From positions 1 to 27,491 of IMG/VR virus record IMGVR_UViG_3300017778_001401: a stretch of 27,491 nucleotides of DNA; one strand, given 5' to 3'. The notes under the pieces were generated by a model. The model saw only the letters and a list, made by a program, of their open reading frames with translations, ran no database searches and was not told the DNA's origin. Shown piece after piece: positions 5,061 to 15,169 of this stretch; the first letter of the stretch is position 1, and each line of letters begins with the position of its first letter. Source of the DNA: a virus. Lineage: Duplodnaviria; Caudoviricetes. The position numbers were made by a program, and so were the translations under genes.

Positions 5061-5752
5061 AGTTCAGCTCCTTTGGTGTTTAGCCATGCACGAAGTGCAG
5101 ACATTCCGCCATCAATTAGTACATGATTAGAGAATTGCTGGTAGATGCCGTAAATCGAATGATTTACAAAGTTCTTCATAATAAGATAAGCATCGGCATT
5201 TATGACTGACTTTTCGTTTACTGACTTACTAGCATCAACAAATCTAAAATCGTGCTTATGACCGTACTCTGACTCAATCATGTGCGTTTGTGAATTAAGT
5301 AAGCCTATAACCACAATTCTAGGCTTATGAAAATTATCACCATTGTATGTCGGATCATGCTTTGTTAAACGAAATTCGTGCTCAAGCTCTTTAACTACCA
5401 ACTTCACATTGTCTTTGACAATTAATGCAATACGTCTAGCAATGGTGTTAATTAACTCATCTATTGAAGACTCTTGTGCAAGTTCAACCGTTACTTCTGG
5501 CTCTGGCTCTGGCTCTGGCTCTTTAGCAAGTGGCTTAACATAAGCTGCACGTTTCTTAACTTCATTAGTTAAGTCATAGCATGATGAGTAAGAATTAAAT
5601 GCTCTATGTCGGTTGCGATCAGTAAGCACCATTAGCTGTGCTTGCTTAATCGCGTCGTAAGGCGAGAGTGCACGCAATTTATAGTACTCTGTTGCTTTAT
5701 CAAGCACTTTTTCTTTTTCTTCATTTGTCCATCGAATTTTAGCAGTCATCAT
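5057..5752 (-). CDS. Hypothetical protein (231 aa): N-terminal helical (possibly DNA-binding) domain, PE-repeat linker, C-terminal DUF2325-like alpha/beta domain
   Basis: RWTNEEKEKV start, (PE)n linker and C-terminal IVVIG...ADAYLIMKNFVNHS resembling DUF2325. AAGGA RBS and ATGA overlap. Confidence 0.55.
   Translation of the reverse strand: MMTAKIRWTNEEKEKVLDKATEYYKLRALSPYDAIKQAQLMVLTDRNRHRAFNSYSSCYDLTNEVKKRAAYVKPLAKEPEPEPEPEVTVELAQESSIDELINTIARRIALIVKDNVKLVVKELEHEFRLTKHDPTYNGDNFHKPRIVVIGLLNSQTHMIESEYGHKHDFRFVDASKSVNEKSVINADAYLIMKNFVNHSIYGIYQQFSNHVLIDGGMSALRAWLNTKGAEL
5496..5522. repeat. (TCTGGC)x4.5 coding microsatellite (PEPEPEPE linker)
   Basis: tctggctctggctctggctctggctct read directly. 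Confidence 0.9.
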
Positions 5753-6000
5753 AGTTCCTTTTTGTATTCAGTAATATAGTAGCGGTAGTACTTCACACTT
5801 CTATTGAGTGCTTGCTTCTTAATGTTGTATTCAATACAAACATCTATTTGCCGCTCAAGACGCACTACCACACGTTCAAGAGCAGCAAATGTTGGTTTCT
5901 TCCAGTTTGGATAGGCAATCTTAAAAGCTTTAAAAATTTCTTTACGAGCCTTCAAAGGCATTACCTTAAGCTTACTGTGGATTGCCTTCCAGTTATTCAT
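5749..6000 (-). CDS. Basic hypothetical protein (83 aa)
   Basis: ATGA coupling to the ThyX-like gene and to the downstream gene. K/R-rich. Confidence 0.65.
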   Translation of the reverse strand: MNNWKAIHSKLKVMPLKARKEIFKAFKIAYPNWKKPTFAALERVVVRLERQIDVCIEYNIKKQALNRSVKYYRYYITEYKKEL

Positions 6001-6920
6001 GGGTGTTTCTTCTCAATGGCATCGATCTGGCTAAGCAAGCCTTCACGAATTTTTAAGTACACATCACTCCCAAGGTACTCATCACGGCCTTTAGAATGGT
6101 AAAACTGCTCTTCACACCAGTCAAAGTTATCGTTCTTTGCATTTGGCGGAAAGATATTTGTTTTACCCTTGGCCGATTGCCGCTGATAGAACACATCCGG
6201 CTTTCTAAAGTCTACCAACCCTTTAAGAAAAGGATAGACCTTTAATACTTCAAGCCATAGCTTTATGGCGATAATGTTGTCTACCGTGGTTTGAATTTGC
6301 TCATCACCACGCATGATGCAGTAACCAATAAGGTCTTTAATCGTGCACCTAACCATATAAAAATGCTCAAAATTGCGAGGCATGATAGTCCGAGTATCAA
6401 GACCGTGCACAAGACCACTATCAAGCATGTCGATATAAAGATCTCGAGCCATTGTAGTAATTTGCTGATAACGATCATAGAAGTCCTTGTTAGCCATAAT
6501 CCCGGGTTTAACCACAACGCGGTCATCGCGCATATCTCTATCGCCATGGACTTGAGCCGCAAAGCTAAACAGACGGTGTCTGATTAAATGCGTTGTATCA
6601 ACCATATCCATGCCATTAACCGACCAAGTGATGTTAATCGTTTCCATTGCAGTAGGCAACAGTTCATACTTAAATAGCTCATCAATGGTTTGATCAACGT
6701 CTTCTTTTGGAAAGTCCCATTGGATCTTGTCATTCCATGTGTTCATTAGAAACACTGAAATCGTCTGACGGAATTGCTCAACCGTAGGGGCATGGACGAT
6801 CTTGACATCAATGGCTTCCAGCTGGTTGACAAACTCAATTGGCTTTGGCTTTTGACCGAATTTAAGTGTGGTGTGCATCTTTTGTAGATGCGGCATTTGT
6901 TCTTTACTAACCTTTGGCAT
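5997..6920 (-). CDS. thyX: Divergent ThyX/Thy1-like FAD-dependent thymidylate synthase family protein (307 aa)
   Basis: TAMETINITWSVNG...THLIRHRLFSFAAQVHGDR and DTRTIMPRN...GYCIMRGDEQIQ...EVLKVYP align with ThyX motifs (HxSxxEH, RHRxxS, ARxxLP, LRxxxHAQ). The RHRx7S serine is replaced by Val. Confidence 0.75.
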   Translation of the reverse strand: MPKVSKEQMPHLQKMHTTLKFGQKPKPIEFVNQLEAIDVKIVHAPTVEQFRQTISVFLMNTWNDKIQWDFPKEDVDQTIDELFKYELLPTAMETINITWSVNGMDMVDTTHLIRHRLFSFAAQVHGDRDMRDDRVVVKPGIMANKDFYDRYQQITTMARDLYIDMLDSGLVHGLDTRTIMPRNFEHFYMVRCTIKDLIGYCIMRGDEQIQTTVDNIIAIKLWLEVLKVYPFLKGLVDFRKPDVFYQRQSAKGKTNIFPPNAKNDNFDWCEEQFYHSKGRDEYLGSDVYLKIREGLLSQIDAIEKKHP

Positions 6921-7191
6921 GTTGTTCCTTAATGAGTTGAAGTTCTACTAATCGTGCGTAGCCTGCAATATCTGTCCAGCTGTCTATGTGATTAGGCGAT
7001 ACAGCTAAACGAGAAAGTTTCATGGCTATCTTTGAGAGATAAATAACATAGATGGGGTCGAGCTCCTTTCCATGGGTTTTGCGATACCTGTCCTTTATAT
7101 TTTCAAGGATAACTGCTTCTAATGAAACACCATCATAAAAATCACCGTACACGGTACCTCGTTGTTCTAAAACTTGATCTGTCGTGGTCAT
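6907..7191 (-). CDS. DUF6378-like protein (94 aa), putative all-alpha nucleotide pyrophosphatase-type fold
   Basis: RGTVYGDF...KLSRL...HIDSWTDIAGYA signature. TAATG coupling with the HD gene. Confidence 0.75.
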   Translation of the reverse strand: MTTTDQVLEQRGTVYGDFYDGVSLEAVILENIKDRYRKTHGKELDPIYVIYLSKIAMKLSRLAVSPNHIDSWTDIAGYARLVELQLIKEQHAKG

Positions 7192-7700
7192 TACGCAACC
7201 TCGTAAGGCTTAAGTTTTTCTTGCAACTTAAGTAACCGTTTAGCGCTATTGGCATGCACGTCAACCATGTAGCCTTGGTTGCCTAGTGCAATCTCGTTTT
7301 GTGAATACTGCATGCATTGAAGAGCATCGGCATAATGCACAACCAAGGCTTCAGGCGAGTCCTCATGGTAAATGTCACAAAAATGCTTTATTTGAGGTGG
7401 AAAATTCTGTACGATCTGTTCTTCGGCTTCTTTAAGAGCCGCTGCAACGATTGGATAGTTCTTCTTAACCAAGTGGTTTACATCAGAGATTTCCATCTCG
7501 GCCAAGTCATGGCAAATAGCAATCTTAATTGCTTCATTGACATCAAACTTGTAAAAAGGCGCCATTAGCAAGACGCCTAAAGCCACAAAATAGCTATGTG
7601 TTGCCACACTCTCTTGATGAATTACCGGCTTCATGCTATATCGCTTGGTGTGCTCCAAGGTATAGCTTCGCATAAAAAAGTCCATGTCTTTACTATTCAT
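7191..7700 (-). CDS. HD-domain 5'-deoxynucleotidase (YfbR/HDDC2/DatZ-like, 169 aa)
   Basis: KRY...ESVATHSY...CHDLAEMEISD...VVHYADAL metal-binding motifs. GGAG RBS. Confidence 0.85.
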   Translation of the reverse strand: MNSKDMDFFMRSYTLEHTKRYSMKPVIHQESVATHSYFVALGVLLMAPFYKFDVNEAIKIAICHDLAEMEISDVNHLVKKNYPIVAAALKEAEEQIVQNFPPQIKHFCDIYHEDSPEALVVHYADALQCMQYSQNEIALGNQGYMVDVHANSAKRLLKLQEKLKPYEVA

Positions 7701-8154
7701 AGCTCATCTCCAAGTCTGACCAGTTTTTGCGGTCAAACACGCCTTTGTCAATTATTTCCCTAATGGCCATGTCCAACTGTATGAAGTTCCTAACCACGGA
7801 ACCGGATGCAGCTAAGACTAGATTAAACTTCTGACCAGGCTGACCATCCAGCCATAGGTATATGAGGGGAATTGAATTTGCGTAGCACCAGCCGGCCTCG
7901 AATAAGGTTCCTGGGTCCTTGCCATCGGTTACACACAAAGCTAGATCAGTTTTAAGTAAAGCCTTAACATTAAGTTCCAAGACCTGTTCAGGAGTAGTGG
8001 ACTTAGGGTCAAATAGGCATTCATCCTTAGGGCTAAAGTACCGGACGCCGTGGACGTCAAGAAGTGCCTTAGTGCTTTCGATGATTTCCACTTGTCGTGG
8101 ATTAAAAAATGGGCCGGCTATGTAAACATAGGGCTTAGTTGTGATTGAGTCCAT
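7693..8154 (-). CDS. Nucleoside 2-deoxyribosyltransferase (NDT) family protein (153 aa)
   Basis: YIAGPFF, FSP, DGKDPGTLFEAG (catalytic Glu) and FNLVL motifs. Start moved to ATG 8154, which follows an AGGA RBS. Confidence 0.85.
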   Translation of the reverse strand: MDSITTKPYVYIAGPFFNPRQVEIIESTKALLDVHGVRYFSPKDECLFDPKSTTPEQVLELNVKALLKTDLALCVTDGKDPGTLFEAGWCYANSIPLIYLWLDGQPGQKFNLVLAASGSVVRNFIQLDMAIREIIDKGVFDRKNWSDLEMSYE

Positions 8155-8220: not shown

Positions 8221-8424
8221 TCATATTTCATCCTCCTCATCGGGGTATTCTTCCTTGTCGGCACGGTCTTCGTCTGTCTCGAAAGACGTGTGCGCTGCCT
8301 CCCAGTCTCGCTGAATCTGGCGAAGCCGCTCCTCCTCGGCGTGCTGCTCTGCCGGAATGGCTTTGTACCGCTCAATCTGTTTAAGCAGGTCCGCCTGCAT
8401 TTCATCAAACAAGTTGTGTTTCAT
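8221..8424 (-). CDS. Small acidic protein (67 aa, 22 D/E)
   Basis: First ORF after the promoter at 8478-8506, with an AAGGG RBS. Acidic C-terminus TDEDRADKEEYPDEEDEI. Confidence 0.7.
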   Translation of the reverse strand: MKHNLFDEMQADLLKQIERYKAIPAEQHAEEERLRQIQRDWEAAHTSFETDEDRADKEEYPDEEDEI

Positions 8425-8435
8425 ATTTTAGCCCT

Positions 8436-8506
8436 TAGTAGTTTAGAAGTAAAGCGTTTACTGAAGTAAACAATTGCATTATACCTTATGTGCAGAGAAG
8501 TAAACA
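8436..8506 (-). promoter_or_regulatory. Promoter P1 and leader: TGTTTACT-N15-TATAAT, +1 hairpin, CTTCTAAACTACTA box
   Basis: TGTTTACT at 8499-8506, TATAAT at 8478-8483, hairpin at 8456-8471 and box at 8436-8449. Same architecture at 14704-14775 and 18350-18422. Confidence 0.75.
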
Positions 8507-10166: not shown

Positions 10167-10798
10167 TTGCAAGGGCCACCATTGCTCTTGCGAAAGTGGC
10201 AAAACTTGCACAAACCTGATGGATTGGCTGCAAAGATATTGTCTTTGTTAATTGTGCTTATGCGATTGGCAAGTTCATCTTTGTACTTGCCAAGTTCATC
10301 ACGAGTAATACGAGAGTATTGCACATTCTTTTGTGAGTCAATGAACTCAATAACTAAGTTTACACGATTAATGTGAGGTTTAGTAGCCAACACAACCGCG
10401 GCATACACAGACACTTGATCTACATAGTCACGTTCTTTGCCTGTCTTAAAGTCAAGCACTGTGGCTGTATCGCCTTCTTCAAAGTACAGGTCAATCACGC
10501 CGCGAAACCACGCATTCTTGTCTTTGTAATCTACAAGATCCCATGCCTCGTTAATAGCAAACTGCATTTCAGACTGTGCGTTAGATAGCTTCCACTTATT
10601 TAGCTGTGGTATTAAGTACTGAACAACATTCGATGCCAGTGGCAATTCACCTTTAATAATGGATTCAATCTCGGAGTGAATTAGACTACCTCTAGATGCG
10701 GCATCGCCTGATGGTTCTTGCAATCGATCAATACGATTAAACTTGTACCGCGAAGGACATTGCTCATAGAGCTTTACCGCCGAATAGGAATATGCCAT
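10160..10798 (-). CDS. PD-(D/E)XK Cas4/RecB-like exonuclease with putative Fe-S cluster (212 aa)
   Basis: SYSAVKLYEQCP, GSLIH, GVID, LDFKTG, QVSVYA and C-terminal CKFCHF...C cysteines. Confidence 0.88.
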   Translation of the reverse strand: MAYSYSAVKLYEQCPSRYKFNRIDRLQEPSGDAASRGSLIHSEIESIIKGELPLASNVVQYLIPQLNKWKLSNAQSEMQFAINEAWDLVDYKDKNAWFRGVIDLYFEEGDTATVLDFKTGKERDYVDQVSVYAAVVLATKPHINRVNLVIEFIDSQKNVQYSRITRDELGKYKDELANRISTINKDNIFAANPSGLCKFCHFRKSNGGPCKW

Positions 10799-12615
10799 TA
10801 TTTAACCTCTGCAAAGTTGCTGCCAATCTTGGCTTCTGCAATTAAAGGAACATCCAATGTAAATGCATGAATCATGCAATGAGCTAACTTATCAGCTTCA
10901 CGTTGAACAACATCGGCTTTTGCTGAAATAATCAGCTCATCGTGCAAAGACAAAAGCAACCGAGCATCTTTAGCAACGCGCCAATAGTTAATCATTGCCT
11001 GCTTTGCCATGTCTGCGCCACTACCTTGAATTAGTGTATTCAGTGACTTAAACCCAAAGTTCATAAGTTTACCGTTAATGATCTTAGGCGGTTCGCCTTT
11101 AACTAACCGGCCACCAATAGTAGAGAACGGGGCACGTATCTTGTACCTGTCCATTAAGTCGTTGTTGACTTTGTCAAGCCCAGGGGCTACCTCAGACTTA
11201 TAAAGATCTATCAGCTGACGGGCTTCTGCATAAGGTATGCCTAGCATTTCACATATCTTCTTAGGGCCTGCGCCATACAAGATACCAAAGGACATAGTTT
11301 TGGCATAGTCTCTAATGACCGTCTTGCCAGACTTTTCACTCATCAAATTAGCAGCAAAAGCATGCAGATCAGCATTAGGATCTTTACGATACTGATCGGC
11401 CAGCTTACCGTCCTCAAAGTGTGCAAATAACCGCAGCTCTTGAGCTTGAAAGTCAGCCGCTGCCATCATGTGGCCTTCATCAGGCAAGATAAACTCACGA
11501 ACCTTAGGAATTATTAAGTCTTGCAGTATTTCCGGCAATGGGGTCTTAGGCCCACGTGTTGGCATGGTCTGTAGTGTTGGCTTAGCCGACAATCTGCCGG
11601 TTCGTGTACCACCAGCCTCACCGCGGACGGTATTCCATTCCGTGTAGATCCTTCCTGTTGAAAGCGATTGACTTAGCCATGGTTCTATATAGGTGCCGGT
11701 TAGTTTAACCAACACGTCCCTATGCCGTAGGACGGAGGATAACTCCGTGTCGGTTAGCATTACTTTTAGCGTGTCTTTGTCAGATAATGGGGTACCTTTG
11801 TCACTTGTGGGCCATTGCTTGTTTGTGTCATACACGCCTTTTTCCATAACAGCCTTTACAAGCTGAGCGCCGGAATTAAAGTTAAGCTCATAACCAAAGT
11901 ACTTAAACAGCCAGACTTCACACATCTGAATATCAGCATTGGCTTTTTCAAGGCTAGCGTTTAAGCCGTCACGATTTACACGAATGCCTAGCTTACTGTT
12001 TTCCAGCAACACCGGCATTAGTCGTATTTCACGAAGGTAAGCCTCAGGCATTGCATCGCGGACTTCTTTAGTGAAATCCCATAATCCTGCAGTAAGCCGT
12101 ACATCGGCCTCGGCATACTTACCTACAAGATCGGCAGGACCACGAGCAATGTAAGCGCCTGCCTGTTTAGGCTTCTTACGAACAGCTTCGATGTTCATAG
12201 TTAGCCAGTCAAACAGCTCATCGCGTTCTTCTGGTTGCACATTTAACCAGTCTTTACATAGCTCTTTTAGCGATAAGCTCCTAACATATGGATCATAAAG
12301 AAATGCAAGCACCATAGTGTCGTGCAAACATCTTGGGTCAATAAACGGTAGGTCAAATTTTTCATAGATGATTGCCATGTCAAACATTGCATTGTGAAAA
12401 CACACATGTCTACCAGACGCCCACATGTCTTGCAGCATTTGTCGAACATGAACAAATGTGGTGTTGTTATTACTATCATGCGCAAATGCAAAGTAGCCAG
12501 ACTTAAATTGTCCTGTCCTGTCAAGCACCGCCAAGCCAACTGGCTTAGGCGGATACTCATGCGGACGTGGACCAATCGCCTCGGACTCAAAGTCAAGGAA
12601 GATTGGATCCATCAT
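10798..12615 (-). CDS. polA: Family A DNA polymerase with 3'-5' exonuclease (605 aa)
   Basis: Exonuclease motifs DFESE, HNAMFD and YAEAD. Polymerase motifs TRTGRLS, A (DFQAQELR), B (RDYAKTMSFGILYG) and C (LHDEL). Confidence 0.95.
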   Translation of the reverse strand: MMDPIFLDFESEAIGPRPHEYPPKPVGLAVLDRTGQFKSGYFAFAHDSNNNTTFVHVRQMLQDMWASGRHVCFHNAMFDMAIIYEKFDLPFIDPRCLHDTMVLAFLYDPYVRSLSLKELCKDWLNVQPEERDELFDWLTMNIEAVRKKPKQAGAYIARGPADLVGKYAEADVRLTAGLWDFTKEVRDAMPEAYLREIRLMPVLLENSKLGIRVNRDGLNASLEKANADIQMCEVWLFKYFGYELNFNSGAQLVKAVMEKGVYDTNKQWPTSDKGTPLSDKDTLKVMLTDTELSSVLRHRDVLVKLTGTYIEPWLSQSLSTGRIYTEWNTVRGEAGGTRTGRLSAKPTLQTMPTRGPKTPLPEILQDLIIPKVREFILPDEGHMMAAADFQAQELRLFAHFEDGKLADQYRKDPNADLHAFAANLMSEKSGKTVIRDYAKTMSFGILYGAGPKKICEMLGIPYAEARQLIDLYKSEVAPGLDKVNNDLMDRYKIRAPFSTIGGRLVKGEPPKIINGKLMNFGFKSLNTLIQGSGADMAKQAMINYWRVAKDARLLLSLHDELIISAKADVVQREADKLAHCMIHAFTLDVPLIAEAKIGSNFAEVK

Positions 12616-13374: not shown

Positions 13375-13749
13375 CTATTTACGTGACTTAGTGATTGAAA
13401 TGCCCCATATCTCAGCAATGGAAGAGCCGGGTATCTCTTCACCTGCTTCCCAGCGATCCTTAAATGCAGTACTGCTGAGCCTCTTATGCAATAAATCAAA
13501 ACTGTTTGTAGTTGTGACATACGCATAAAACTTGTCCCAATCCGTAATGGTTGGATGTTTGTTCTTGTTCATTGAAACCGAATGGCCAAGATCAGATGCC
13601 GCTTTCATAGTGCCTGCCTCATTCATGGCATGCATAAGATCGCGCTCTAGTATTGCAATTTGCTTACCAAGGTCTTCATCTTTCTTGGATAGCTCGGTGC
13701 GTTGGGCTCTTACCTCAACAAGTTTGTTAATTATTTCAGATAGATTCAT
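13375..13749 (-). CDS. Conserved phage coiled-coil protein of the replication module (124 aa)
   Basis: N-terminal coiled coil and ITDWDKFYAY...LLHKRLSSTA...GEEIPG, a pattern common upstream of SSB-like genes. Confidence 0.65.
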   Translation of the reverse strand: MNLSEIINKLVEVRAQRTELSKKDEDLGKQIAILERDLMHAMNEAGTMKAASDLGHSVSMNKNKHPTITDWDKFYAYVTTTNSFDLLHKRLSSTAFKDRWEAGEEIPGSSIAEIWGISITKSRK

Positions 13750-14206
13750 ATTTACGCTCTAAAAAAGAAGGGTGATAAAAGTATTGCGTAATGCCGGCTT
13801 CATTAAACATAAGGTCTGCTAATTTCCATGACTTAGCCCATCGGTCATTTTCATTCATAACCGACACATGTTGTGTAATGCCAGCTTGTATCATCATAGC
13901 AGCGCATTGACTGCATGCCTGCATTGGCCATGTATACATTGTGCAATCTTTAAGCGTTTGCTTTGCAAATAGTATAGCATTAGTCTCAGCATGCAATGTC
14001 ATCATAAGCTTAGTTTCACGGTCATTTAGACGGTCGGCATGGTCTTTAACATTAGGCGGAAAACCGTTAAAGCCTAGGCTCACAATTGCATTGTCAGAGC
14101 TTACGATAACAGCACCGCATTTAGTGGATGGGTCTTTTGACCATGAGGCAACCAGCCTAGCCATGTTTAAATACCTATGATCCCATTTAACCCCTGATCT
14201 AGACAT
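13736..14206 (-). CDS. dCMP deaminase (156 aa)
   Basis: WSKDPSTKCGAVIV, GFNGFP, HAETNA and CSQC zinc motifs. ATG at 14206 follows GGAG. Confidence 0.92.
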   Translation of the reverse strand: MSRSGVKWDHRYLNMARLVASWSKDPSTKCGAVIVSSDNAIVSLGFNGFPPNVKDHADRLNDRETKLMMTLHAETNAILFAKQTLKDCTMYTWPMQACSQCAAMMIQAGITQHVSVMNENDRWAKSWKLADLMFNEAGITQYFYHPSFLERKYESI

Positions 14207-14693
14207 CACCAGCTCCCATCCAGTTAGGCTGCTGACCTTTGCCACGATAGTAGGTACGTGCCCACAAAGGGTTTTTAGACTGGTAGTACCGACGGTATGC
14301 CTGCACTGTGTCATAGTGCTTGTGTTCATCCGGCATGCATTGTGGCGGGTTATCCCAACGGTAATTATCAGAAATTGCAGGCGGTGGATTTTTGAGCTCG
14401 CCTTGTAGCATAGCTAAGCACTTGTGCACTTTGCCATACCTGAATGTAAATTCTTTGCACAAGTTAATGGCCAACTTAACTACCCATGCATAATGCTCAG
14501 CAGTTGCACGAGTCCAGATTGCCGATGGGTGATTTTTATGTGTAGGTTTGTAAGTAACATTGTGGCCATTGCCATGCTCATGATGAGCCGTAGCCAGCAT
14601 TTGGCATGATTCCACGACCATTTTGACAACGTGCTTGTCGCAATGAAACTGTGCTGCAATTTGCGGTAGATGGTGTAGATAGAAGATGTTCAT
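14199..14693 (-). CDS. Pyrimidine-dimer DNA glycosylase/endonuclease V-like protein (164 aa)
   Basis: MNIFYL...HCDKHVVKM..E..QML, YKPTHKNHPS.IW, RYGKVH and PQCMP...AYRRYY family pattern. Confidence 0.8.
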   Translation of the reverse strand: MNIFYLHHLPQIAAQFHCDKHVVKMVVESCQMLATAHHEHGNGHNVTYKPTHKNHPSAIWTRATAEHYAWVVKLAINLCKEFTFRYGKVHKCLAMLQGELKNPPPAISDNYRWDNPPQCMPDEHKHYDTVQAYRRYYQSKNPLWARTYYRGKGQQPNWMGAGDV

Positions 14694-14776: not shown

Positions 14777-15169
14777 TTATTTTCGACTTTTTTCAAATAA
14801 AAGTAAAGCAATAGTTTCTTCTGGTCCGGTCCAGCCTGCAGGTTTTGTGGCATCTTGCTGTGTGCCTCGACTAGTAGCACCGGGGACTTTTTTCATATTG
14901 CAATCATGCACAATGTCAAGAATCTCTGGTAGTGGCAGACCCATGTGATGCGCACAGCCCATGGTGACATAGGCTAAATCAGCAATGGCATCGGCAGCAT
15001 CGACCAAGTTGCCTTTTTCATGGGCTTTAAGCAACTCGCTTAGCTCTTCCATTAGAAACCGTGCATAAAAGCTGATGTGAACAGGCTCTAGCAATTGCGG
15101 TTGATGTGATACCGGCAAGTTTAGTTTGTTACGAAACTGCAAGACCTTAGAGTACATGTCATTTGTCAT
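14777..15169 (-). CDS. MazG-like NTP pyrophosphohydrolase (DR2231/PRA-PH-like, possible dUTPase; 130 aa)
   Basis: MEELSEL...DAADAIADLAYVTMG...VHDCNMKK...KPAGWTGP motifs. Confidence 0.85.
   Translation of the reverse strand: MTNDMYSKVLQFRNKLNLPVSHQPQLLEPVHISFYARFLMEELSELLKAHEKGNLVDAADAIADLAYVTMGCAHHMGLPLPEILDIVHDCNMKKVPGATSRGTQQDATKPAGWTGPEETIALLLFEKSRK

Follow-up and report, generated by a model that had tools for sequence, protein, structure and literature searches.

The window, a stretch of 27,491 nucleotides of a Caudoviricetes virus (IMG/VR record IMGVR_UViG_3300017778_001401), carries on its minus strand four closely packed genes for enzymes with apparent roles in nucleotide metabolism. 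The first (7693..8154, minus strand, ATG at 8154) encodes a 153-residue protein of the nucleoside 2'-deoxyribosyltransferase family (NDT; PF05014, E 6.5e-13), the second (7191..7700, minus strand, 169 residues) an HD-domain, YfbR-like 5'-deoxynucleotidase (HD_3 3e-18, YfbR-like 9e-14), the third (6907..7191, minus strand, 94 residues) a lineage-specific, four-helix accessory protein with a DUF6378 domain (PF19905, 9e-8), and the fourth (5997..6920, minus strand, 307 residues) a divergent ThyX-fold flavoprotein with a remodelled active site and a C-terminal extension (PF02511, 6.6e-11). An earlier note had described these as a four-gene operon behind a promoter of its own. The genes and their junctions are real and translationally coupled, i.e. 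an overlap of 8 nt (7693/7700), a TAATG at 7189-7193 and an overlap of 14 nt (6907/6920). The operon is not closed, in that the ThyX-like gene in turn overlaps by 4 nt an 83-residue open reading frame (5749..6000, minus strand), which has a tblastn match in 65 of 80 close loci and no family in Pfam or PHROG searches, and the four genes form part of one long co-directional run with those for a family A DNA polymerase (PolA) and an SNF2 protein. The supposed promoter, P1, is a weak sigma-70-like match (8425..8453, minus strand, 9/12 positions); four sites of that quality were found versus 9.6 +/- 2.7 in shuffles, i.e. no better than chance against shuffled sequence, and it was dropped.

Other genes in the window may be tied to the same pathway, including those for a dCMP deaminase (13736..14329, minus strand; PF00383, 4e-19), a probable source of dUMP, and for a MazG/PRA-PH-type nucleotide pyrophosphohydrolase (14777..15169, minus strand; PF01503, 1e-14; phrog_671), which by its inferred substrate is a possible dUTPase. 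That the four genes lie apart from these two is correct within the window, but does not extend to relatives; the dCMP deaminase gene adjoins the ThyX-like gene in several, and in five loci (L101, L117, L124, L133 and L137) the ThyX-like gene is followed directly by both. The 605-residue PolA (10798..12615, minus strand; PF00476) scores 194 bits with the DpoZ model, against a cut-off of 500, so is not a DpoZ, and has no match to a uracil-DNA glycosylase (UDG). Among the 38 window ORFs scanned there is no PurA/PurZ family match, as the earlier note had observed for PurZ, and no glycosyltransferase, the window being a partial genome.

The assignment of the ThyX-like protein to the Thy1 fold is secure. 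Its AF2 model has a pLDDT of 96.2, the best Foldseek matches are ThyX enzymes (E 4e-11, TM 0.5-0.7), and, as in the canonical enzymes from Mycobacterium tuberculosis (3GWC/2AF6) and Thermotoga maritima (TM0449), the RHR flavin-binding motif and the equivalents of R147 and R174 are present. It fails, however, the NCBIfam thyX equivalog model TIGR02170, scoring 29 bits versus a cut-off of 87.9, and a motif census of 47 representatives of the ThyX-like family upholds the claim that it is atypical. R114, R116, R177 and R204 are kept in all 47. By contrast, the folate-stacking His located five residues before the conserved Glu in canonical ThyX is Leu in 47/47 representatives and His in 12/12 canonical sequences. 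The canonical RHRxxSxxxxS-x-R-Y motif is likewise absent, the window protein reading V124-H-G-D-R. Across the 47 representatives the S-x-R-Y positions have Cys at Ser (44/47), Gly or Ala at Arg, and Asp at Tyr (46/47), whereas the canonical set has Ser in 12/12 and Arg in 11/12; with a one-residue shift of the alignment at Ser, 44/47 have Ser or Thr, the window protein having His. The clade thus reads C/V-S/T/H-G-D-R/K in place of S-x-R-Y. One dUMP-phosphate Arg position is also altered and, unlike canonical ThyX, the clade has a C-terminal extension of about 70 residues and is linked to an NDT and a nucleotidase.

In many phages the genes for the NDT, the nucleotidase and the divergent ThyX are co-inherited. 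Among close loci with sufficient flanking sequence, DUF6378 was found in 77/77, the HD protein in 72/72 and the NDT in 69/70. In the divergent set, i.e. the 40 of the 47 representatives with adequate flanks, an NDT is present in 37/40, an HD or HAD nucleotidase in 38/40 (HAD standing in for HD in six), a dNMP kinase in 30/40, and a dUTPase-like protein or dCMP deaminase in 33/40; truncated ThyA-like genes follow the ThyX-like gene in 12/40. DUF6378 occurs in only 5/40, with another helical ORF in a further 2/40, and never together with the dNMP kinase, which HMM searches did not detect in a complete close relative (G002). Co-conservation of all four genes, as earlier proposed, therefore holds for a core of three; DUF6378 is ruled out as a core pathway enzyme by its rarity. 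Three complete genomes with a ThyX of the window clade (G016-G018) have no NDT; such members have an HAD protein and a Rossmann-like protein, for which PDB and PHROG gave no assignment. In the cultured Geobacillus phage GR1, on which no paper was found, all three best matches lie in one block, and the polymerase is of a different type. A single pattern scan of GTDB gave no cellular homologues, and the ESM Atlas returned only already-known Pfam families. Inserts in the block in close relatives are small accessory ORFs, none of which, among those listed, is by eye an obvious enzyme. Palindrome avoidance was mixed (GGCC 0.70, CTAG 0.80, GATC 1.15, GCGC 1.42) and uninformative.

The NDT has the features of the nucleoside-type enzymes (Tyr, Asn/Asp, Asp, a Glu nucleophile and a C-terminal Asn). 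In 26 aligned NDTs, the catalytic residues Y11, N62, D80 and E86 are invariant and N111 nearly so; an Asn at the N62-type Asn/Asp site is also found in Trypanosoma brucei NDT (PMC12645435). The best PDB match of the family profile is to the nucleoside-type 6EVS (E 5e-25), with NMP glycosidases matching at 9e-5 or more weakly. The HD protein scores below the NCBIfam YfbR cut-off (32 versus 122 bits), and matches a dATP triphosphohydrolase PHROG at 6e-13. Since HD matches in QdP_Psa3 and Manatee Spring virus adjoin ThyA-type genes, the HD protein is not by itself specific to the module.

The assertion that the gene set matches no known pathway was too strong, since all three enzyme classes are shared by SP-15, YerA41 and Carin-5, the three phages in which a pentyl-type linker on thymine, a five-carbon hydroxyalkyl chain, has been measured chemically. 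SP-15 and Carin-5 also carry a second, ordinary thymidylate synthase, as do some relatives of the window. Each of the three has an NDT, a YfbR-like HD protein and a divergent ThyX of another kind, often adjacent, together with dUMP supply genes (in SP-15 the counterparts compared were the gp127 NDT, the gp129 SDR and the gp130 Thy1-like protein); the window genome has the same three classes, the combination by which we define, in an unpublished criterion of our own, the SP-15 type. In other respects they differ. Their ThyX, of about 400 residues, looks like a degenerate tandem form and is weakly similar to the 307-residue window clade; they have a large UDG-fused PolA and sugar-transfer clusters, features not shared by the window. 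In hhalign comparisons, the window-clade profile matches the SP-15 type at P 53.7 and E 1e-4 but lies far nearer to canonical ThyX (P 99.9, E 5e-34), and orthology with SP-15 gp130 was dropped on this ground and because tblastn gave no reciprocal match. The link to the measured chemistry is therefore by analogy and, at the level of gene content, via GXN1, in which an SP-15-type ThyX is paired with an NDT and HD protein that nest within the window family. The ThyX of LIS04 is closer to the SP-15 type. The outgroup of the NDT tree is narrow and gives no basis for a single origin with the SP-15-type NDTs.

Given the co-conservation and the non-canonical ThyX, a pathway to a modified pyrimidine is, of the readings considered, the most likely for the module. 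The NDT–nucleotidase pair looks more like a supply line for deoxyribose than a DatZ/MazZ-style depletion system, because HAD can replace HD and the NDT belongs with the nucleoside-type enzymes. In the specific form that we favour, which by analogy has slightly less than an even chance of being right, the nucleotidase and NDT would free 2-deoxyribose, and the ThyX-like enzyme would couple it reductively to C5 of dUMP, giving hydroxypentyl-dU. The HD (or HAD) nucleotidase would convert dNMPs to deoxynucleosides, which the NDT would cleave via its Glu nucleophile, releasing or handing on 2-deoxyribose. The sugar aldehyde may then be captured at N5 of the reduced flavin in the ThyX-like enzyme, much as formaldehyde is in ThyX, and be transferred to C5 of dUMP, itself probably supplied by the dCMP deaminase and dUTPase-like enzyme; reduction would give 5-(3,4,5-trihydroxypentyl)-dUMP, with a predicted nucleoside mass of 346 Da. 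A kinase, phage-encoded in most relatives and presumably the host's in the window phage, would make the triphosphate, and PolA would swap part of the T for the modified base, probably as anti-restriction armour. The pathway would be pre-replicative, with the hydroxyls possibly tailored in other lineages by variable neighbours (glycosyl- and O-methyltransferases, reductases).

Masses computed over dT are +104.05 for trihydroxypentyl and +88.05 for dihydroxypentyl. The YerA41 core of 346 Da corresponds to 242 + 104 (PMC9023294), and dU + deoxyribose + 2H − H2O equals it at 346.14; the 88 Da of Carin-5 (PMC12686479) fits dihydroxypentyl. The title of a 1978 paper states that ribose label enters the SP-15 base. 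ThyX is reported to take up free aldehyde via a flavin carbinolamine, with S88, R90 and Y91 of the T. maritima enzyme assisting the aldehyde chemistry (PMC8316439); the equivalents of these three residues are lost in the ThyX-like clade, which counts against aldehyde coupling. The three complete NDT-less genomes and the dNMP kinase not detected in G002 likewise weigh against the proposed route.

Published papers (2018, 2025, 2026) suppose a 5hmdU route for SP-15-type phages or leave the biosynthesis unsolved. ThyA-type dUMP hydroxymethylase pathways resemble the module in modifying C5 of dUMP before replication and in including dCMP deaminase, dUTPase, a nucleotidase and a dedicated kinase, but they use another fold and cofactor and a one-carbon folate donor, and the two ThyA+HD phages checked have no NDT. 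Among the papers covered by our literature searches, none proposes deoxyribose and ThyX chemistry and none bears on trihydroxypentyl and uracil. The broader proposal, likewise by analogy and with appreciably less than an even chance, is that this ThyX branch may be a flavin 'C-alkyl synthase' using nucleotidase/NDT-derived 2-deoxyribose, may be the missing biosynthesis of the base in SP-15, YerA41 and Carin-5, and may mark a large, overlooked phage group. If true, it would explain dihydroxypentyl-uracil formation in SP-15, open since the 1970s, by a new ThyX chemistry, C–C coupling of a sugar aldehyde, and offer an enzymatic route to C5-functionalised DNA; it would also predict a bare or differently tailored modified base in abundant freshwater, marine, gut and thermophile phages now annotated with a plain thymidylate synthase.

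A different modified pyrimidine, made by the ThyX-like enzyme from another C5 donor or on a nucleoside or free base, with the NDT swapping bases and the nucleotidase editing the pool, is unlikely, albeit with a real chance of being correct. The gene linkage and motif data fit it equally, the altered phosphate-contact positions could mean a substrate other than dUMP, and phage NDTs swap bases in Z-genomes (PMC12884076; bioRxiv 2025.10.22.683976); the NDT-less members and the truncated ThyA-like genes described above also favour it. It leaves unexplained, however, the presence of an NDT and a divergent ThyX in all three phages with measured pentyl linkers and the +104/+88 mass fit, and the uracil-activating R204 is invariant.

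Ordinary supply, in which a drifted ThyX makes dTMP and the NDT and nucleotidase salvage host DNA, is improbable, even though the fold and flavin arginines are intact, dUMP-supply genes adjoin and no further thymidylate synthase was found in 7/7 close relatives tested, as plain dTMP synthesis predicts. Against it, the folate His and S-x-R-Y residues are replaced throughout the clade; an ordinary ThyX or ThyA accompanies the divergent ThyX in G008, G010, L243, L209, SP-15, Carin-5 and LIS04, in L243 as a canonical ThyX two genes upstream of an NDT–HD–kinase block; and none of five control phages has an NDT. That module genomes sequence normally from metagenomes also speaks for ordinary supply, but is compatible with a modified base, given that PCR readily takes up dihydroxypentyl-dUTP in its unglycosylated form (PMC11550810).

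The earlier suggestion that the HD and DUF6378 proteins destroy one canonical dNTP, in the manner of DatZ and MazZ, with full substitution of the genome, is very improbable. The module does resemble the Z-genome accessory enzymes (DatZ, MazZ/DUF550, DmtZ, NDT-M2) in having an HD hydrolase, a small helical protein and an NDT-family enzyme beside PolA, and the HD match to the dATP triphosphohydrolase PHROG fits depletion. MazG-type enzymes are all-helical, as is the DUF6378 model (four helices, pLDDT 94.7), in which the only conserved acidic residues are D5, D70 and D74. By contrast with the Z-genome sets, the scanned window ORFs hold no PurZ match, PolA lies under the DpoZ cut-off and the partner is ThyX-like; DmtZ acts on dAMP, whereas the window NDT has its nearest matches among nucleoside-type enzymes. 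Only 7/40 representatives have a DUF6378-type ORF, HD is interchangeable with HAD, and thymine substitution in the comparison phages is partial, about 50-75%. Signalling nucleotides can be substrates for hydrolase families, but destruction of nucleotide immune signals by the NDT and HD proteins with an incidental ThyX, also raised earlier, is hardly credible and finds no support here. The NDT groups with nucleoside-type enzymes, and the tight linkage runs to ThyX-like, kinase, dUTPase and dCMP deaminase genes.

The combination of a nucleoside 2'-deoxyribosyltransferase-family protein (NDT), a nucleotidase and a divergent ThyX constitutes a real, widespread and undescribed phage module. In the window, a 27.5-kb phage fragment with terminase, primase, PolA and SNF2 genes, it lies on the minus strand, comprising NDT (8154-7693), a YfbR-like HD 5'-nucleotidase (7700-7191), DUF6378 (7191-6907) and a Thy1-like (ThyX-like) protein (6920-5997). 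The gene overlaps described in the earlier note are confirmed (8 nt for NDT/HD, TAATG for HD/DUF6378, 14 nt for DUF6378/ThyX-like); the unit is open-ended, because the ThyX-like gene overlaps an 83-aa ORF downstream. The promoter P1 assigned to it is not supported: it is a 9/12 match, and the region has 4 such matches compared with 9.6 in shuffles. The slot upstream of NDT (8221-8424) holds variable small genes across close relatives; its 67-aa acidic ORF was seen only in the three window-identical loci of the best 80. Elsewhere in the window a pyrimidine-dimer glycosylase-like gene (14199-14693) adjoins dCMP deaminase.

For close relatives, 100 viral loci were retrieved and the best 80 analysed (ThyX identity 83-100%, three identical to the window). 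Where upstream DNA is sufficient, 77/77 of these loci have DUF6378, 72/72 have HD and 69/70 have NDT. ThyX is mostly the most conserved of the nearby proteins, e.g. ThyX 91%, PolA 83% and NDT 66% in the locus L007. Linkage at this distance is by itself weak evidence, since SNF2 is likewise syntenic there. The ThyX-like family comprises 160 clusters (50% identity) at E<=0.001, the weak tail being canonical ThyX, and 32 at 1e-30. From a sample of it, 304 loci pooled from best-80 lists, 303 have a ThyX-like gene and form 47 single-linkage groups at 70% identity; seven representatives were excluded for short flanks and neighbours were counted in the remaining 40, using HMMs seeded from the same loci, with main labels cross-checked against Pfam. 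Among these divergent representatives the proposed co-conservation with ThyX-like is upheld for NDT (37/40; 36 by ORF calling, and locus L124 by six-frame search) and for a nucleotidase (38/40; HD in 32, the alternative HAD in 6), but not for DUF6378 (5/40). A different small helical ORF is present in 2/40 and canonical ThyX in 3/40; a dNMP kinase, frequently fused to NDT, is present in 30/40, and 33/40 have a dUTPase-like or dCMP deaminase gene. The small helical ORF (DUF6378, as at 6907-7191 in the window, or other, as at L124:7748-8011) and the kinase are mutually exclusive (7 with the former, 0 with both, 30 with the latter, 3 with neither; p 6e-6, lineage-confounded). In small controls, NDT occurs in 0/5 phages, of which three carry a synthase annotated as Thy1-type and two carry ThyA and HD; Thy1 occurs in 0/2 Lactobacillus NDT phages.

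The AF2 model of the window ThyX-like protein (pLDDT 96.2) has ThyX as its structural matches. In the alignment census R114, R116, R177 and R204 are invariant in 47/47 representatives; by spacing, we take these to be T. maritima R78, R80, R147 and R174. The last of these is reported to activate dUMP (PMC8316439). The claim that this ThyX is atypical is borne out: Leu occupies the folate-His position in 47/47 representatives, where 12/12 canonical ThyX have His, the Q75 position is His in 47/47, and the S-x-R-Y site is replaced by C-S/T-G/A-D-K/R (V-H-G-D-R in the window). Judged from the alignment, these changes are fixed replacements rather than decay. A second, canonical synthase accompanies the ThyX-like protein in a few cases (ThyX in genome G010 and loci L209 and L243; ThyA in genome G008), and a canonical thymidylate synthase is absent from all seven close relatives tested. 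The module probably makes a modified pyrimidine of some kind.

Against 50,697 phage records, the ThyX-like query matched solely the cultured Geobacillus phage GR1 (37.5%), whose ThyX-like block also holds NDT and HD together with genes for a glycosyltransferase, a kinase-like protein and a nitroreductase, and the NDT query matched five (GR1, GXN1, GN1, YerA41 and Carin-5). GXN1 has the order NDT-HD-ThyX-like, and its ~400-aa ThyX matches SP-15 gp130 (40.6%), Carin-5, three Vibrio phages, YerA41/GN1 and phiXF1; in SP-15, NDT gp127, SDR gp129 and gp130 are grouped together. NDT is present in 9/9 and YfbR-like HD in 8/9 named phages checked, counts that leave out Vibrio phage 150E35-1; four of the nine entered via NDT and five via ThyX (GR1, SP-15, Va2, 1.031.O, phiXF1), and the latter have NDT in 5/5. 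The GXN1 NDT and adjacent HD nest within the window-type family (80/98; SH-aLRT 94), and other SP-15-type NDTs and HDs lie outside it, with outgroups too narrow for single-origin inference. By profile comparison (P 53.7 against SP-15-type ThyX, 99.9 against canonical ThyX), window-type and SP-15-type ThyX are not clearly orthologous; the window module may work like the SP-15-type system, of which it is not demonstrably a member.

SP-15 DNA is described as containing 5-(4,5-dihydroxypentyl)uracil of pre-replicative synthesis, and a 1978 title cited in the same source has ribose label entering the base (PMC5977210). The reported thymidine increments are 88 Da in Carin-5 (PMC12686479) and 104 Da in YerA41 (PMC9023294), the latter given as the SP-15 linker plus 16 Da in PMC13697223; PMC12686479 assigns both masses one hydroxyl fewer. 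Calculated increments (trihydroxypentyl +104.05, dihydroxypentyl +88.05) agree with PMC13697223. Further, dU + deoxyribose + 2H - H2O gives 346.14, and ribose in place of deoxyribose would add +120; the YerA41 match carries a 1-Da ambiguity, because PMC9023294 gives 346 as m/z, equated with neutral masses. The YerA41 NDT is annotated 'mannosyltransferase' (L082:15004-15540), and its gene 081, annotated 'hypothetical' (L082:11544-12707), is a divergent Thy1 protein. A reductase adjoins NDT in both +88 Da phages (Carin-5 gene 17, L084:12525-13367; SP-15 gp129, L085:13351-13995), and none is annotated next to NDT in YerA41 (+104 Da).

By profile comparison with structures, the window-family NDT is nucleoside-type (best 6EVS, E 5e-25; DNPH1/MilB 9e-5 or weaker), which would account for the 5'-nucleotidase requirement and for HD/HAD interchangeability. 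NDTs are reported to hydrolyse nucleosides under limiting acceptor base (PMC12645435), and T. maritima ThyX to couple free formaldehyde to dUMP, folate-free, via a flavin-N5 carbinolamine (PMC8316439). Deoxyribose might take formaldehyde's role at the ThyX-like flavin, giving the YerA41 core. UDP-galactopyranose mutase is a precedent for a flavin-sugar adduct. The SDR/reductase beside NDT in SP-15 and Carin-5 could then remove one hydroxyl, and the window phage product would be the bare triol, since a tailoring gene is absent from the window. Normal sequencing is not counted against a modified base, because a related diol dUTP is reported as a ready substrate in PCR (PMC11550810). By analogy with the measured phages, that the module makes deoxyribose-derived hydroxypentyl-dU is a tentative reading, its chances a little short of even. 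In the literature found, characterised phage NDTs come from Z-genomes only (PMC12884076; bioRxiv 2025.10.22.683976), a jumbo-phage survey names ThyX in a single general passage, and no proposal of a deoxyribose plus ThyX route was found, supplements and subscription journals being outside the scope.

Real weak points stand against deoxyribose coupling: the canonical ThyX residues aiding aldehyde transfer are, on alignment, those replaced here, and NDT-less members need another donor. NDT is absent genome-wide from the complete genomes of the three NDT-less representatives (G016-G018), in which a ~295-aa Rossmann-like gene (L172:6579-7451; L186:6557-7453; L167:6228-7118) and HAD occupy the place of NDT and HD; the Rossmann-like protein may supply a different donor.

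Other neighbours, some with Pfam matches below cut-off, are variable, and include TylF-, FkbM- and class I methyltransferases, GT8- and TAGT-like proteins, epimerases, a nitroreductase, a radical-SAM protein and a GT2-ThyX fusion (P0149). Inside or after the module lie, e.g. a TylF-like O-methyltransferase (L137:1674-2441), two FkbM methyltransferases (L285:1158-2512) and a glycosyltransferase-looking ORF without a Pfam match (L104:9304-9981). Short or truncated ThyA-fold genes (L081:12939-13394; L169:8936-9544; L267:3324-3983; L246:9039-9944), some kinase-fused, occur 3' of the divergent ThyX, one type in 12/40 and a ~150-aa type in 7. Two relatives have homing-endonuclease fusions (HNH with ThyX-like, P0122; GIY-YIG with HD, L096:6548-7684), and two a small phosphoribosyltransferase-like gene (L096:9098-9538; L154:14688-15122), once directly downstream of the module. 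QdP_Psa3 (L143:2691-12489) combines a ThyA-type synthase with HD, a kinase and sugar enzymes, and L144:6215-8905 combines ThyA-type, HD, a TAGT glycosyltransferase and DUF3310; both are likely other base-modification clusters.
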